Assembly: GCA_963774955.1 (NCBI GenBank)
Contig: CAVZGV010000006.1
Coordinates: 90,855-154,854, forward strand
Reading direction: 5' to 3'
Length of the DNA stretch: 64,000 nucleotides
Origin: Candidatus Falkowbacteria bacterium
GTDB lineage: Bacteria; Patescibacteriota; Patescibacteriia; CAIXNZ01
The notes under the pieces were generated by a model, which made no database searches, was not told where the DNA came from, and saw only the letters and a list, made by a program, of their open reading frames with translations. The translations under genes were made by a program, and so were the position numbers. Positions 5,835-61,796 of this stretch are shown here, in pieces. The number at the start of each line of letters is the position of its first letter. Positions within the stretch are counted from its first letter, which is position 1.

Positions 5835-5869
5835 AAAGCCCTCCGAAGCCTCGGCGCAGGAGGGTTTTT
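5835..5869 (+). terminator. rho-independent terminator after rplA
   Basis: aaaaGCCCTCCgaagcctcggcgcaGGAGGGtttttt. Confidence 0.7.
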
Positions 5870-20509: not shown

Positions 20510-22267
20510 TTATTTTCTGTTTAAAATTTCGTCTTTAATATCAGCAATAAGCTTATCAACATCCTGCGCGCCCAAATCACCCTGACCACGCTGTCTGACC
20601 GCAACCTGTTTAGCAGTCACTTCTTTTTCACCGATAATTAAAAGATACGGAACTTTCTCCTTTTCACCGGCGCGTATTTTTTTACCTAAGGATTCCGCAG
20701 AATCATCAACTTCTACCCGAATGCCGTGTACAGCCAATTTAGTCTTTACTTCCATGGCATATTCCAAAAATTTATCAGAAACCGGTAAAATCTTAACCTG
20801 CACAGGCGCTAACCAAGTCGGAAAAGATCCGGCATAATGTTCGATTAAAAGCGCCATAAATCTTTCCGGAGAACCGGCAATTGCGCTGTGGATCATAACC
20901 GGGGTATATTTTTTACCGTCAGCTCCAGTATATTCCAGCTTAAACCTGACCGGCATATTAAAATCTAATTGTATCGTAGAAATCTGCCACTGGCGACCCA
21001 GCGCATCCTTAGCAATAATATCCATTTTCGGCCCATAGAATGCAGCCTCACCTTCAGCCTTAATAAATTCAAGCTTCTTCTCAATTAAAAGTTCTTCCAG
21101 TAACTTTTGCGATTTTTGCCAAACCGTATCATTACCCAAATACTTAGCTTTCTGAGCTTCGTCCCTTAATGACAAACGAATATAATAACTTAAACCATAA
21201 GTTTTCAAAGCTGTTTCAATGATACCAAGCAAATTGCCAAATTCTTCTTTAATTTGATCTTCAGTACAAAAACAATGCCCGTCATCTTGGGAAAATGCGC
21301 GCAAACGTGTCAGACCAGATAATTCCCCGGGGCGTTCATCCCTATATAAATTAGCACAATCAGCAATTCTGATCGGCAAATCCTTATAGCTTCGTGGTAA
21401 TGAGGCAAAAAGTTGAGTATGCTGAGGACAATTCATTGGCTTCAAAAAATATTCTTCATCTGTATAATTGGAAGTCACCTTAAACATATCTGCCTTATAC
21501 TTATCATAATGACCTGAAATCTTAAATAATTCAGCTTTATTAATCTGAGGAGTATGAACTTCCTTATAACCGATTTTTTCACGCAATTCGCGAGAAAAAT
21601 TTTGAATCTGGCTGCGAATTATAGCACCTCGATGAGTATAAAGCGGCAGACCAGGTCCGACTAAATCTGAAAACACAAACAAATCCTGTTCTTTGCCGAT
21701 TTTTCTATGATCCCTTTTTTCAGCCTCCTCGAGCATTTTCAAATAATCATCAAGTTCTTTTTGGGTTTCAAAAGCAGTGCCGTAAATTCTTTGCAGCATT
21801 TTGTTTTTTTCATCACCGCGCCAGTAAGCCCCTGACACGCGCAGTAATTTAAACAGACCGATTTCTTTGGTGGATTTAACATGAGGCCCACGGCACAAAT
21901 CATCAAAAATATCATCAATCTTATAAAAACTAACCTTCTTCTCACCCTGCGCTTCCAGGTCTTTAATTAATTCGGATTTATAAATCTGACCTTTAACCCG
22001 TTCCAACGCCTCTTTGATCGACACTTCCTCGCGTTCAATCTTTAAATTCTCCTTAATAATTTCCTGCATCTTGGCTTCAATTTTCGGCAGATCTTCGGAA
22101 CTCAAAGATTTTCCGCCTAAATCAAAGTCATAGTAAAACCCCTCGTCAATCGTCGGGCCAATGGCAAATTGAACGTCTTTAAATAAATCTTTTACTGCCG
22201 CAGCCATGACATGCGACGCCGAATGGCGCATAACATCTAATTTAGATTCTTTGTTCTCTTGACTCAT
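20510..22267 (-). CDS. thrS: threonyl-tRNA synthetase
   Basis: 585 aa class II aaRS with editing-domain motifs (HSASHVMAAAV), a catalytic core and a C-terminal anticodon-binding domain. Confidence 0.9.
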   Translation of the reverse strand: MSQENKESKLDVMRHSASHVMAAAVKDLFKDVQFAIGPTIDEGFYYDFDLGGKSLSSEDLPKIEAKMQEIIKENLKIEREEVSIKEALERVKGQIYKSELIKDLEAQGEKKVSFYKIDDIFDDLCRGPHVKSTKEIGLFKLLRVSGAYWRGDEKNKMLQRIYGTAFETQKELDDYLKMLEEAEKRDHRKIGKEQDLFVFSDLVGPGLPLYTHRGAIIRSQIQNFSRELREKIGYKEVHTPQINKAELFKISGHYDKYKADMFKVTSNYTDEEYFLKPMNCPQHTQLFASLPRSYKDLPIRIADCANLYRDERPGELSGLTRLRAFSQDDGHCFCTEDQIKEEFGNLLGIIETALKTYGLSYYIRLSLRDEAQKAKYLGNDTVWQKSQKLLEELLIEKKLEFIKAEGEAAFYGPKMDIIAKDALGRQWQISTIQLDFNMPVRFKLEYTGADGKKYTPVMIHSAIAGSPERFMALLIEHYAGSFPTWLAPVQVKILPVSDKFLEYAMEVKTKLAVHGIRVEVDDSAESLGKKIRAGEKEKVPYLLIIGEKEVTAKQVAVRQRGQGDLGAQDVDKLIADIKDEILNRK

Positions 22268-22295
22268 ATTGTTATAAATAAATTAATTAATATTT

Positions 22296-22371
22296 GTCCC
22301 GCGGAGCGGGATGCCGCTCTGCGGTATAGATTTGTATCATGCCGCGAAGCGGTATGCCGCTGCGCGGCATT
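22296..22371. repeat. array of four GC tri-loop hairpins in the thrS proximal 5' UTR
   Basis: gTCCCGCggaGCGGGAt, then three units of ATGCCGC-NNN-GCGG(C/T)AT (loops tct, gaa, tgc). Confidence 0.7.
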
Positions 22372-22625
22372 AAAAAAATCCCGTCCTAAAATATAATAAA
22401 AATTATATCTTGGGACGGGATTTCCCGTGGTTCCACCCAAGTTCCACAGTCCTCCGAAGCTCCAAAGGAGCGTAGGAGGGCCGAAGCACTCTTATTTAAG
22501 CTTAGAAAAATTTCAATTTAATGAAATTTATGCTCCGAAGCTCGAACTGAGTGAGAGCGTAGGAGCAAACGGTTGGTAGCCGTTTCAATCACTTTTTAGT
22601 AGTTATATTGTAAAACAATAAAATT
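22372..22625 (-). promoter_or_regulatory. candidate T-box riboswitch leader (threonine) for thrS
   Basis: On the minus strand: T-box-like ttGGGTGGAACCACGGG immediately 5' of a long terminator hairpin (aaatcccgtccc ... gggacgggattt) followed by a U-run. Upstream hairpin aaacggCTACCAAccgttt displays the Thr codon ACC. Confidence 0.5.
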
Positions 22626-22640
22626 TCAATGTCAAATTTA

Positions 22641-23768
22641 CTATTGAACAACCTGAATAATTATATGATCCTGAAAAAAAGGCATTTTCTTTGACCAGGA
22701 TGGAAAAAAGCTTATCTCGACTTTTTCAATATTGTCAAAATTTTCCAAATATGACTTCAAATCCTGCTGGCTCATACGAATTAATTTATCACGGTCCAAA
22801 ATCTGGCTATTTTCGCTGATTATCGTCATGCCCTTTATATTACTTTTGATTTGCACCAACTTATTGGCTAAATCCGTTTTTTCAATTTCATAAATCAACT
22901 GACCAGAAGAATCAGAGACTAATTGGTAATCAGAGGTTACCTGCCCATCCAGAGTTTTTTGGGCAAAAGTTTTAACCTGTCTTTCATCAAAGATTACGCC
23001 AATGACTTTTATCTTTAAATTTATTTTGAAATTAACCGCCTGGTCTCCTGCTTTTTGATTAAATTCCTTGGACACAACTTCTTTACTCAAGATTTTGGAC
23101 ATATTAAAATCAGCGTCTTTAACGGTCTGTTGCGCCAATTCATCCGAGTATGACACCACGGCCTTATCTAAATCTTCCTGGGTAATTACTTTAACTGACT
23201 GCCCCGAAGCCAAAAAGTCCGAAACAGCTTCTGCATAAACAAATTGCTGCATATTTTGGCTTAAGCCAGGAATAGTAAATTTAGTACCAGCAACTGCGGC
23301 TGTTTTTGTAAGATCATCAGGATAAACATCGGCGATAACACTGCCGTTGCCTGGGATGCCGACTTGATTTTTTAACCTAAATAAGATTCCGTCTGGTGAC
23401 AATAATCTGGTTTTAACTATCAAAATCTGATCAGCACTTAATTTATTAAAAAGCTTCACTTGACCTATAAACTCGCTGGACACCTGCTGACTGCCTGTAG
23501 CTATAAATTCTTTTTCTCCGCTCAAGGTTTCATTTATTATCTTGCCGGCAAAAATACCTTCTTCAGGCTTTTGGGCACTGGCATCTTCAACCATTATAAA
23601 ATTAAAGTCAGTACTGACTTCTTTGGCCCTTGGGGTAATAGTAATGTACGAATAGCTTAAGGTAAAATAAAAAACCACCCCGATTAAAATAACCGTCAAA
23701 ACTATAAAGCTGAAAGCTATTTTGCGATAAATGCTTAAAGGAGGATTAATGTGATGTCGATGAGGCAT
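22641..23768 (-). CDS. hypothetical membrane-anchored extracytoplasmic protein
   Basis: N-terminal TM (IAFSFIVLTVILIGVVFYF) and 375 aa. No recognisable catalytic motif. Confidence 0.5.
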   Translation of the reverse strand: MPHRHHINPPLSIYRKIAFSFIVLTVILIGVVFYFTLSYSYITITPRAKEVSTDFNFIMVEDASAQKPEEGIFAGKIINETLSGEKEFIATGSQQVSSEFIGQVKLFNKLSADQILIVKTRLLSPDGILFRLKNQVGIPGNGSVIADVYPDDLTKTAAVAGTKFTIPGLSQNMQQFVYAEAVSDFLASGQSVKVITQEDLDKAVVSYSDELAQQTVKDADFNMSKILSKEVVSKEFNQKAGDQAVNFKINLKIKVIGVIFDERQVKTFAQKTLDGQVTSDYQLVSDSSGQLIYEIEKTDLANKLVQIKSNIKGMTIISENSQILDRDKLIRMSQQDLKSYLENFDNIEKVEISFFPSWSKKMPFFQDHIIIQVVQ

Positions 23769-46714: not shown

Positions 46715-46789
46715 TGGCTGGGGAGATAGGATTCGAACCTATGAATGCCGCCTCCAAAGGGCGGTGCCTTACCGCTTGGCGACTCCCCA
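46715..46789 (-). tRNA. tRNA-Gln (anticodon UUG), CCA encoded
   Basis: Minus-strand cloverleaf tggggag tc gcc-aagcggtaa-ggc a ccgcc CTTTGGA ggcgg cattc atagg ttcgaat cctat ctcccca g cca. G at position 37 is atypical, so the isotype call is moderate. Confidence 0.6.
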
Positions 46790-47075
46790 AAAATTAAAGT
46801 TACTAATTGTTTAACCGCGTGCTTGCCTGCCGAAGCTTTAGCGAAGGCAGGGCGACTCCCCAAAAATTTAAAACTACTAATTGTTTAACCGCTTGCTTGC
46901 CCGCCAGAGCCTGAAAGGCGTAGGCGGGGCGACTCCCCAAAGGTGTTAATGACCAATAATCAATAACCAATAACCAAATAATTTTCAAATCTCAAATACC
47001 AAAATTATTTTACTAACTTTCAACCGCTTGCTTGCCCGCCAGAGCCTGAAAGGCGTAGGCGGGACGACTACCCAA
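46785..47075 (-). repeat. three tandem ~75-nt pseudo-tRNA-like repeats, each starting with the tRNA-Gln 5' acceptor segment
   Basis: On the minus strand each unit begins ttGGGGAGTCGCC (identical to the tRNA 5' end), then a GC hairpin (ccgcctacgcctttcaggctctggcggg or ctgccttcgctaaagcttcggcagg), a D-loop-like aagc(ac)gcggttaaac and an AT-rich tail. Units 2 and 3 are near-identical. Confidence 0.7.
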
Positions 47076-50112: not shown

Positions 50113-50591
50113 TTTTTCCTCCCTTTGCCCGCCAAAGCCTTGTGCGAAGGCGGGCTTTTCAAGGTACAACCTAGTTTGCTTTAAATCAGGATAAACAAAG
50201 ACTCTCTTAGCCTGATTTGGCCGAGAGAGTCTTTAACAATATATTTAAACCTAATTTTAGCTTTAAAAATATTATCCGCACAAAAAACTCCTATGGCCAT
50301 ATTTAACCCAAGCCCCGCCAAAAACTGGTGTTACTGTATAAAAAGTTAAATTTTTATGACAATTAAACATAATATTATTGGATTTAAATCTTAAGAATTC
50401 ATTTCACTATAACATATTAACAAGAATATGTCAAGTAAGCGCTGAAAACTTATTACTTAATATAAGACGGCTAAACATTTTAAATATTACACTTCAAATC
50501 GTCCTTAGCCGTTGACAAAAATAAATTTTAGTGTTAAAATTGCATCAAGCTTTAAACATCAAATCGTAAGACACTTTCAAGGAGGACAAAA

Positions 50592-53811: not shown

Positions 53812-53923
53812 TTAATTAAAGTGCTTGCCCAGTTAAAAGTTTGTGTAATCTATAGATTAACAGGATAAAGAGAATTTAAGAATCCAACCATTTTACATAA
53901 TTTTTACATAGACTTTTAACTGG

Positions 53924-53994
53924 GCGGGATTAGTATAGTGGTAGTACGCGACCTTCCCAAGGTCATAGCGCCGGTTCGATTCCGGTATCCCGCT
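53924..53994 (+). tRNA. tRNA-Gly (anticodon CCC)
   Basis: gcgggat ta gtat agtggta gtac g cgacc TTCCCAA ggtca tag gccgg ttcgatt ccggt atcccgc t. Discriminator is U. Confidence 0.7.
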
Positions 53995-53999
53995 TAGAT

Positions 54000-54072
54000 G
54001 CCCCTTTAGCTCAGTTGGTAGAGCGACGGTATCGTAAACCGTAGGTCGCCGGTCCAATCCCGGCAGGGGGCT
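54000..54072 (+). tRNA. tRNA-Thr (anticodon CGU)
   Basis: gcccctt ta gctc agttggta gagc g acggt ATCGTAA accgt aggtc gccgg tccaatc ccggc agggggc t. Confidence 0.75.
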
Positions 54073-54076
54073 AAAT

Positions 54077-54128
54077 CTTTAGGGGTTTCCCGCGCAGCGG
54101 GACTTCGCTCCGCGGAGCGATCCCCCTT
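54077..54128. terminator. nested GC tri-loop hairpin structure after the tRNA pair
   Basis: AGGGGtttCCCGCgcaGCGGGacttCGCTCCgcgGAGCGatCCCCT. Confidence 0.55.
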
Positions 54129-54137
54129 CTCGGCTAA

Positions 54138-56280: not shown

Positions 56281-56310
56281 AGAAATATTTAAATTAAAAA
56301 GTAAAAGCCG

Positions 56311-56340
56311 CGGAGCGGCTTCCCGCTACGCGGGAAAATT
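56311..56340. terminator. paired GC tri-loop hairpins
   Basis: aaGCCGCggaGCGGCtTCCCGCtacGCGGGAaaa. Confidence 0.55.
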
Positions 56341-61507: not shown

Positions 61508-61581
61508 CGCGGGGTAGAGCAGTCTGGCAGCTCGTCGGGCCCATAACCCGAAGGTCGTTGGTTCAAATCCAACCCCCGCAA
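61508..61581 (+). tRNA. initiator tRNA-fMet (anticodon CAU)
   Basis: C1:A72 mismatch (cgcgggg...ccccgca) and three G-C pairs closing the anticodon stem (tcGGG CCCATAA CCCga). T-arm gttgg ttcaaat ccaac. Confidence 0.7.
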
Positions 61582-61716
61582 CAAGACGACTTAGTAGCTC
61601 CCGCCTACGCTCCGGCTTCGGCGGGCAGGCAGTACTGGAAGAAAAGATTTGAAAGAACGGCCTACCGACTTCGCTAGTAACTTTAAAAATAAAATTTAAT
61701 AGATTTTACAATACAT

Positions 61717-61789
61717 GACTCGGTAGCTCAGTCGGTAGAGCAACTGCCTTTTAAGCAGTGGGTCCCGGGTTCGAGCCCCGGCCGGGTCA
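61717..61789 (+). tRNA. tRNA-Lys (anticodon UUU)
   Basis: gactcgg ta gctc agtcggtag agc a actgc CTTTTAA gcagt gggtc ccggg ttcgagc cccgg ccgggtc a. Confidence 0.8.
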
Positions 61790-61796
61790 CAAAAAT

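Follow-up and report, generated by a model that had tools for sequence, protein, structure and literature searches.

A probable threonine T-box riboswitch with an ultrashort Stem I in the thrS leader of a Patescibacteria bacterium

The thrS gene and its leader

T-boxes are a model system for the recognition of tRNA by RNA, and to our knowledge few regulatory RNAs have been described in bacteria of the candidate phyla radiation (CPR). Here we analyse the leader of thrS, the gene for threonyl-tRNA synthetase (ThrRS), in a 64-kb stretch of Candidatus Falkowbacteria DNA (hereafter the window), where an element at 22595-22372, in front of the gene, has the sequence elements and predicted folds of a T-box riboswitch. 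The gene and its leader lie on the minus strand, and leader coordinates written from high to low follow the RNA from 5′ to 3′. The regulated gene itself (20510-22267) encodes a threonine–tRNA ligase of 585 amino acids, identified by the TIGR00418 equivalog model (693.5 bits against a cutoff of 383.65) and by the Pfam domains tRNA_SAD, tRNA-synt_2b and HGTP_anticodon. The protein is short, begins at the editing/second additional domain and lacks the N-terminal TGS domain; it aligns over its full length with CPR relatives and with several Firmicute relatives. None of the other annotated open reading frames (ORFs) in the window, 15 in all with thrS, encodes an aminoacyl-tRNA synthetase. The GC content of the window is 39%.

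An initial annotation of this DNA had pointed out that control of thrS by a T-box is well established in Firmicutes and that its presence here would bear on the lineage. The nearest relatives of the window’s ThrRS, drawn from one genome per GTDB species, are metagenome-assembled genomes (MAGs) of Patescibacteria/CPR (Parcubacteria, Falkowbacteria, Magasanikbacteria, Komeilibacteria, Buchananbacteria and others) at up to 64% identity, with Firmicutes next at about 50%. By its closest ThrRS relatives, the lineage is thus Patescibacteria/CPR and not Firmicutes.

A T-box core with two mutually exclusive folds

The T-box core reported for this leader is present: uuGGGUGGAACCACGGG lies at 22440-22424. 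The sequence GGTGGNACC has a single exact copy in the 64-kb window, and its copies with one mismatch number 21 where 19.7 are expected, which is the chance level. Once the 3′ arm of the downstream terminator is omitted, the region 22441-22409 folds into a textbook antiterminator, as the annotation had anticipated. Helix A1 pairs CUUGGG (22441-22436) with CCCAAG (22414-22409), helix A2 pairs ACGGG (22428-22424) with CCCGU (22419-22415) across an AAAU loop, and between their 5′ strands sits a 7-nt bulge, UGGAACC (22435-22429), whose UGGA (22435-22432) faces the 3′ UCCA of the tRNA. Both helices covary among relatives (see below), and the Rfam T-box alignment has a posterior of about 1 over this segment.

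Immediately 3′ of the core stands the long hairpin followed by a U-run that had also been noted, an intrinsic terminator at 22423-22372 (5′ arm 22423-22402, loop 22401-22398, 3′ arm 22397-22376, U-run 22378-22372). It comprises 20 bp with a free energy of about -24.5 kcal/mol followed by U7, and is formed by pairing of AAAUCCCGUCC (22423-22413) with GGACGGGAUUU (22386-22376) together with an inner AU helix of 10 bp. Two trivial errors in its first description can be corrected: the 3′ arm given as gggacgggattt actually reads aggacgggattt, which leaves C opposite A at 22412/22387 as a mismatch, and the spacer has 25 nt rather than 24. The 5′ arm of the terminator shares 10 of 11 nt with the 3′ strands of the antiterminator (22419-22409), and the two folds are mutually exclusive. 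The full leader folds into the terminator form (-80.5 kcal/mol; z = -6.2 against dinucleotide shuffles), and the terminator ends 105 nt 5′ of the thrS ATG.

At Rfam gathering thresholds, a scan of the whole window returned five tRNAs only and no T-box. In a permissive scan of 22200-22720 (521 nt), the Rfam T-box model, RF00230, was the best match, with 34.7 bits and an E value of 4.2e-6. The alignment covers model positions 1-219, with a posterior near 1 over the antiterminator and a low one in Stem I, where 46 nt stand in place of the 82 of the model; the sub-threshold score is due to the Stem I/Stem II region. The covariance match called for by the initial annotation is therefore there, but it does not reach the gathering score of 93 bits. 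That annotation had also proposed to drop the T-box if neither a covariance match nor an antiterminator pairing could be found, and both were found. Matches to microRNAs and small RNAs in the permissive scan were spurious and merely reflected the terminator hairpin. The window holds no other T-box: near-matches of GGTGGNACC stay at chance level and a dedicated covariance model, described below, finds nothing else. With all core features that define a T-box in place, the element is filed as a T-box riboswitch.

An ultrashort Stem I with an apical specifier

Upstream of the core, a sigma-70-type promoter is predicted at 22635-22607 (TTGACA at 22635-22630, a 17-nt spacer and TACAAT at 22612-22607), matching at 11 of 12 positions, and it presumably drives transcription of the leader. 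Its -10 box ends 16 nt 5′ of GAUUG (22590-22586), a near-invariant motif in two sequence alignments and in an unfiltered set of loci collected by ThrRS homology. The -10 box lies so close to GAUUG that a long Stem I could not place its 5′ strand in between.

Adjoining GAUUG is a hairpin, AAACGG-CUACCAA-CCGUUU (22585-22567), which had been described as presenting the Thr codon ACC and is indeed found there, 139 nt upstream of the core. It appears in every predicted fold, and its stem covaries. The specifier ACC (22577-22575) is followed by a purine, A22574, and the layout of the loop (22579-22573), C-U-ACC-A-A, resembles that of an anticodon loop. The first description had implied a classical Stem I; instead, ACC occupies the apical loop of an ultrashort Stem I of 6 bp. 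[quoted passage not shown] By inspection only, no GA partner strand for a K-turn was seen at the base of Stem I; such a strand is unavailable because the next hairpin begins 0-1 nt past the stem. Overall, we could detect no elbow-binding platform, K-turn, S-turn or IIA/B pseudoknot in the leader.

The architecture is conserved and covaries in CPR relatives

We compared relatives of two origins, about 40 in all: CPR genome loci found through ThrRS homology only and metagenome loci found by pattern. They share a layout in which a promoter and about 14 nt of leader precede GAUUG and a hairpin of 5-9 bp with an apical loop YUACCRN; zero or one plain hairpin follows, then a hairpin directly followed by CUAAR and an A-rich linker; and the leader ends with RRRNG, Stem III, AA, GGGUGGAACC within the A1/A2 antiterminator, and a terminator with a U-run. 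The apical loop has 7 nt except in 5 relatives, where it has 9. All of 36 leaders have the A1/UGGAACC/A2 antiterminator. In 33 of them a promoter matches at 9/12 or better, and the median distance from the end of its -10 box to GAUUG is 14 nt. A strong terminator of about 20 bp (median -25 kcal/mol), overlapping the antiterminator and followed by a U-run, is present in at least 28.

In the set collected through ThrRS homology alone, GAUUG with an ACC-loop hairpin occurs at 14 CPR loci and at 0 Firmicute loci. ACC is the sole triplet common to these 14 unfiltered loops, which excludes other reading registers, and the next base is a purine in 14/14. The covariance model added three loci (L011, L027 and L058), bringing the CPR set to 17. 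In metagenomes, the pattern CTACCAA-N66-96-GGGTGGAACC matched at least 120 stretches. A stem surrounds the loop in 22 of them, and ThrRS lies downstream in 21 of these 22; among the first 100 pattern matches the model confirmed 20, and the remaining 80 or so, with no model match, are chance occurrences. The short design is present in 23-24 metagenome loci. ThrRS identity in these diverged CPR lineages is 42-69%.

In a MAFFT alignment of 30 sequences, all 6 pairs of Stem I are changed on both sides and 98% of the cells remain paired. A covariation score over Stem I, A1 and A2 in these 30 sequences was 0.686, against 0.216 for shuffled alignments, none of 500 of which scored as high; slid registers gave at most 0.18. 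Because the metagenomic sequences had been stem-filtered, we recounted the covariation on ten held-out sequences, namely the window and nine ThrRS-homology loci, which were neither stem-filtered nor in the model seed. Double changes were found in 6/6 pairs of Stem I, 4/6 of A1 and 5/5 of A2, with a score of 0.705 against 0.225 shuffled (0/500 as high). When RNAalifold was given 22 relatives, the window excluded, its prediction was exactly this Stem I hairpin plus the antiterminator with its bulge.

A covariance model, R1, was trained on 22 relatives, the window not being among them. It matches the window over its full length at 22595-22407 with 74.7 bits (E = 1e-14), the next match in the 64 kb scoring 8.3 bits. 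R1 gives held-out leaders of the short type 46-77 bits, those of the canonical CPR type 27-44 and thrS T-boxes of Firmicutes 25-39; RF00230 reverses this order, giving Firmicutes 76-112 bits, canonical-type CPR leaders 59-68 and the short type 35-52. By its R1 match, the window element is a member of a CPR subclass of thrS T-boxes with a short Stem I. No other specifier was found with the short architecture in 1.4 Mb of sequence, all of it gathered around thrS and hence uninformative on this point.

The canonical-type CPR thrS T-boxes (Moranbacteria and others; L020, L024, L029, L032, L038, L071 and L079) carry the core GAGUGGAACC and lack the short ACC hairpin. Two of them, L071 (2611-2806) and L079 (1454-1675), have a long, canonical-looking Stem I region (agaguag...gggag...cugaaag) and reach 59-68 bits with Rfam, still below threshold. 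Two T-box architectures therefore coexist in CPR bacteria, and both escape standard annotation. In 7 relatives (L011 2433-2975, L013 2349-2915, L019 2447-2992, L027 2438-3013, L058 2338-2895, and also L151 and L168, the last with two copies), the Thr T-box stands at the start of an operon whose thrS is preceded by the gene for a GNAT acetyltransferase (about 185 aa; Pfam Acetyltransf_3, RimJ/RimL-like); the window has no homologue of this gene.

The middle region

Between Stem I and the core, the window has two hairpins before Stem III. At the position of Stem II lies a GC-rich hairpin, GCUCC-UAC-GCUC...GAGC-UUC-GGAGC (22566-22532), which is present in the predicted folds and is an expansion specific to the window: relatives have a short plain hairpin or none there, and R1 reads it as a 32-nt insertion. 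At the position of Stem IIA, an AU hairpin of AAAUUUCA, a UUAAAU loop and UGAAAUUU (22529-22508) is predicted; this hairpin is conserved and precedes a single-stranded CUAAG (22505-22501), an instance of the CUAAR motif that stands at the place of the F-box. CUAAR is found in 34/36 leaders. Of 34 leaders, 21 have a hairpin of at least 5 bp that abuts it, where 6.7 would be expected and 200 shuffles reach 13 at most. A hairpin of at least 4 bp begins no more than 2 nt from Stem I in 21 of 34 as well, where 11.5 would be expected and the shuffles reach 19 at most. These middle-region hairpins are short and plain. We also asked whether CUAAR could interrupt a longer Stem II as a bulge or internal loop, in the manner of an 11-nt tetraloop receptor, and rejected this because a closing helix is no commoner than in shuffles.

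At the level of motifs, 13/21 canonical thrS leaders carry the S-turn signature GAA..AGUA and 0/36 leaders of the short type do, and the F-box pattern occurs in 3/36 short-type leaders. For a IIA/B pseudoknot, no consistent complementarity between a loop and downstream sequence was seen, as judged by eye only.

The purine motif AAGAGUG (22493-22487) directly 5′ of Stem III agrees with the RRRNG-Stem III-AA motif defined in PMC7778990; RRRNG stands directly 5′ of Stem III in at least 23/36 leaders and AA follows in at least 30/36. Stem III (22486-22444) has a predicted base of CUUCGG/CUGUGG and is followed by AA (22443-22442). Its tip carries a second GC-rich hairpin, CCUCC-UAC-GCUCC-UUU-GGAGC-UUC-GGAGG (22479-22451), a 23-nt insertion according to R1. 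The two sites that hold these insertions of 32 and 23 nt, the Stem II position and the Stem III tip, are also of variable length in relatives. Some folds predicted for the leader let AAGU in RRRNG (22493-22490) pair with ACUU at the 5′ end of A1 (22442-22439), which lengthens Stem III, and the same pairing is available in L001, L004, L007, L012 and L159; it might help to lock the OFF state.

The tRNA partner

The only tRNA-Thr gene in the window (54000-54072, plus strand) has the anticodon CGU, ends in ...AGGGGGC-U and encodes no CCA. Its discriminator base, U73, is complementary to the A of UGGA. The pairing of the tRNA end with UGGA, which the initial annotation had singled out for checking, therefore fits this tRNA, but the GGU isoacceptor that would read ACC was not found in the window or in the related loci searched, and its discriminator base is for that reason assumed from the CGU isoacceptor. 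With this fit, the proposal of a threonine T-box with an antiterminator/terminator switch on thrS is borne out by the Rfam match, the folds, U73 and the TIGR00418 assignment. The tRNA-Gly(CCC) and tRNA-Thr(CGU) genes lie 4 nt apart, and among the tRNA genes at 46715-46789, 53923-54072 and 61508-61790 those for Thr, Gly and Gln are without an encoded 3′ CCA; the window also has tRNA-Met and tRNA-Lys genes.

GC-rich hairpins and the upstream reading frame

Four small GC-rich hairpins lie between the terminator and the thrS start codon (22371-22293). The closest relative, L001, lacks them, and they are probably members of a hairpin family found across the genome rather than parts of the switch proper. 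Similar small intergenic hairpins occur at 54081-54136, 56303-56338, 61593-61641, 46898-46946, 47033-47066, 50126-50156 and 5835-5867, often after tRNA genes or gene ends, and two more are the insertions within the T-box leader (22532-22566 and 22451-22479). Many have the form [GC stem]-UAC-[inner hairpin]-UUC/UCU-[GC stem] or are CCGC-NNN-GCGG triloops. They may be REP-like or mobile hairpins, or modules that stabilise RNA or bind protein. The module CC-UAC-GCUCC-UUY-GGAGC-UUC-GG is nearly identical at the Stem III tip of the window (22451-22479, minus strand) and in the A2 loop of L006 (2798-2828), a Magasanikbacteria MAG. The UAC/UUC form is no widespread module, with only 2 strict copies, those of the window and L006, in 1.4 Mb. 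Insertions in Stem III or A2 are frequent in T-boxes without a long Stem I (PMC7583486).

An ORF of 375 aa (22641-23768, minus strand) ends just 5′ of the thrS promoter and has no match in Pfam or NCBIfam. By eye, the C-terminal part of its coding sequence looks conserved 5′ of the T-box in L004, L012 and L018, which suggests that its synteny with the T-box is conserved.

Discussion

We consider it highly probable, at roughly 88%, that the thrS leader of this Patescibacteria/CPR bacterium is a Thr-specific T-box that acts as a transcription attenuator. In the mechanism that we propose, transcription would start a few nucleotides 5′ of GAUUG, and the first RNA structure to emerge would be the 6-bp hairpin, whose 7-nt loop would offer ACC in the manner of an anticodon loop. 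The anticodon of tRNA-Thr(GGU) would pair with ACC, loop against loop. If that tRNA were uncharged, its free 3′ end, U73-C-C-A, would pair with UGGA in the bulge and stack on the discriminator formed by Stem III, A1 and A2; the antiterminator stabilised in this way would sequester 22419-22409, and RNA polymerase would read through into thrS. Were the tRNA charged, and so unable to stack on the discriminator, or were it absent, the far more stable terminator (22423-22376 plus U7) would form and transcription would halt 105 nt before the thrS start codon. Complementary 7-nt U-turn loops bind each other far more tightly than free trinucleotides do, as in tRNAs with complementary anticodons; such an affinity between loops could partly stand in for the missing S-turn.

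Several points weigh against this reading. Its support consists throughout of sequence and predicted folds, and the RF00230 score of 34.7 bits is far under the curated threshold of 93. The tRNA-Thr(GGU) expected to read ACC is absent from the window and from the 32 related loci searched. The metagenomic pattern fixes the loop and the core, so the members that it supplied are uninformative on variation there. Binding of the tRNA elbow by the IDTM is held necessary for fast tRNA capture by transcriptional T-boxes, and T-boxes with a truncated Stem I compensate by an S-turn Stem II and are mostly translational (PMC7583486, PMC10482949); neither an IDTM nor a Stem II S-turn is visible here. The element may bind tRNA less tightly than known T-boxes do, or else GAUUG, CUAAR or the GC-rich inserts may act as a substitute that we do not recognise. 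The absence of the S-turn and pseudoknot was judged by a crude motif and shuffle analysis, and a non-canonical analogue is possible.

Other explanations of the locus fare less well. That known T-boxes with a short Stem I mostly regulate translation (PMC10482949) could suggest a translational, Class III-type T-box in which the 3′ hairpin sequesters the ribosome-binding site. We think this very unlikely: a 20-bp hairpin of -24.5 kcal/mol with U7, matched by a hairpin and U-run in at least 28/36 relatives, has the form of a terminator, and its end lies 105 nt from the thrS ATG, too far away to occlude the start region; 7 relatives even have an entire GNAT gene between this hairpin and thrS. Still less likely is a standard Class I (tyrS-type) T-box in which sequence divergence hides a long Stem I, a K-turn and a Stem II S-turn. 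Rfam does align positions 1-219 and pairs GUGAU... with ...CGGAGC as the base of a Stem I, and the window does have an extra 35-nt hairpin right after the ACC hairpin. That extra hairpin, however, is specific to the window and absent from its closest relatives, the Rfam Stem I region has 46 nt against 82 at a low posterior, the specifier is apical on a covarying stem, and the promoters leave only about 14 nt upstream of GAUUG. The S-turn signature GAA..AGUA is found in 0/36 leaders. The two models also separate the types, in that canonical T-boxes score 25-44 bits with R1, whereas with Rfam the short type scores 35-52 against 59-112 for the canonical one.

Autoregulation of E. coli thrS depends on ThrRS binding to a mimic of the anticodon arm in the leader, and the size of the ACC hairpin and its 7-nt loop are like those of an anticodon arm. 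The hairpin could in this way be an operator bound by ThrRS, with the T-box-like 3′ part incidental. This we regard as the least probable of the alternatives: the loop has the codon ACC and not an anticodon (GGU, UGU or CGU), and is thus complementary to the tRNA rather than a mimic of it, and the 3′ half is a complete, covarying T-box discriminator that is conserved together with the hairpin. A decaying, non-functional T-box remnant or a chance resemblance would account for a score under the Rfam threshold and for the repeat-like GC-rich hairpins that have invaded the leader. It is nonetheless about as improbable as a diverged Class I element, because about 40 diverged CPR lineages have retained the architecture, every helix that was tested shows compensatory changes, the functional nucleotides (ACC plus purine, UGGA, GGG/CCC) are invariant, and insertions occur only at hairpin tips or at positions of variable length.

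Beyond the Thr-specific attenuator itself, we tentatively suggest, at a little under even odds, that the element represents an undescribed class of T-box, found so far only in CPR bacteria (Parcubacteria, ABY1-type), that makes its co-transcriptional decision without an IDTM or S-turn and relies on a kissing loop, GAUUG, CUAAR and the discriminator. A conserved and widespread class that joins an ultrashort, apical-specifier Stem I to an intrinsic terminator, with neither gripping device seen, offers a direct test of the IDTM/S-turn rule. If such a class exists, it would be the smallest natural T-box aptamer, the elbow contact would be dispensable for transcriptional T-boxes, and a regulatory RNA of the Terrabacteria type would be added to CPR bacteria. 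An aptamer this small, which in relatives takes up about 150 nt between the 5′ end and the antiterminator, would be useful for structural and engineering work. The short-type elements fall below the Rfam gathering threshold, so CPR genomes are annotated as free of T-boxes; a dedicated covariance model recovers the CPR T-boxes that this threshold misses. T-boxes are reportedly concentrated in Firmicutes, Actinobacteria, Chloroflexi and Deinococcus-Thermus, and their occurrence in CPR bacteria would fit a placement of CPR near these groups.

Comparison with known T-box classes

Four classes of T-box are distinguished in PMC10482949: Class I, in which the specifier lies in an internal loop of a long Stem I that bears the IDTM, and Stem II has an S-turn; Class II (glyQS), with a single-stranded linker in place of Stem II; Class III (N. 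farcinica ileS), with a short Stem I without IDTM, an apical specifier loop of 5-6 nt and a required Stem II; and Class IV, with a Stem I of intermediate length. According to that source, Classes I and II ‘generally regulate transcription termination’, Classes III and IV ‘mostly regulate translation initiation’, and the aptamers use the IDTM, the S-turn ‘or both’. In TBDB, a translational model was applied only to Actinobacteria and to Class I matches with a truncated Stem I (PMC7778990). Truncated forms have thus been seen in bulk before, and the present class is undescribed in the literature searched, which covers the primary papers in part; no published T-box from CPR/Patescibacteria was found in that literature.

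With Class I (B. subtilis tyrS and thrS, RF00230), the element shares the logic of specifier-anticodon and UGGN-NCCA pairing and of an antiterminator/terminator switch, as well as the T-box sequence, the RRRNG-Stem III-AA motif, the ACC specifier and the thrS target. It differs in that the Class I Stem I of about 80-100 nt, with its K-turn, internal specifier loop and IDTM, the S-turn Stem II and the pseudoknot were all not found here, and in its RF00230 score, 34.7 bits against 76-112 for Firmicute thrS leaders. Class II, like the window element, acts on transcription, and its middle region is reduced and has no Stem II with an S-turn; it has, however, a long Stem I with IDTM, Gly specificity and a single-stranded linker, whereas here the long Stem I is missing and the hairpin-CUAAR unit is kept. 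The canonical-type CPR T-boxes belong to the same radiation and share the gene and the UGGA bulge with the window but differ by the core GAGUGGAACC, and L071 and L079 score higher with Rfam (59-68 bits) and lower with R1 (27-44 for the canonical type) than the short type does.

Among known T-boxes, the Class III ileS type of Actinobacteria comes closest. In N. farcinica and M. tuberculosis, it has a short Stem I with an apical specifier and no IDTM, as here (Sherwood et al. 2015, cited in PMC7583486; PMC10482949), and its insertions in Stem III or A2 have likewise counterparts in the window and in L006. The Class III loop, however, has 5-6 nt rather than 7 nt in an anticodon-loop layout, and Class III has a K-turn, a long S-turn Stem II that is needed for tRNA binding and a IIA/B pseudoknot where the present element has one or two plain hairpins and CUAAR. 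Class III is also mostly translational, specific for Ile and actinobacterial, whereas the window element has an intrinsic terminator, is specific for Thr and belongs to CPR bacteria. Close as it is to Class III in its Stem I and to Class I in its switch, the element lies outside all four described T-box classes.

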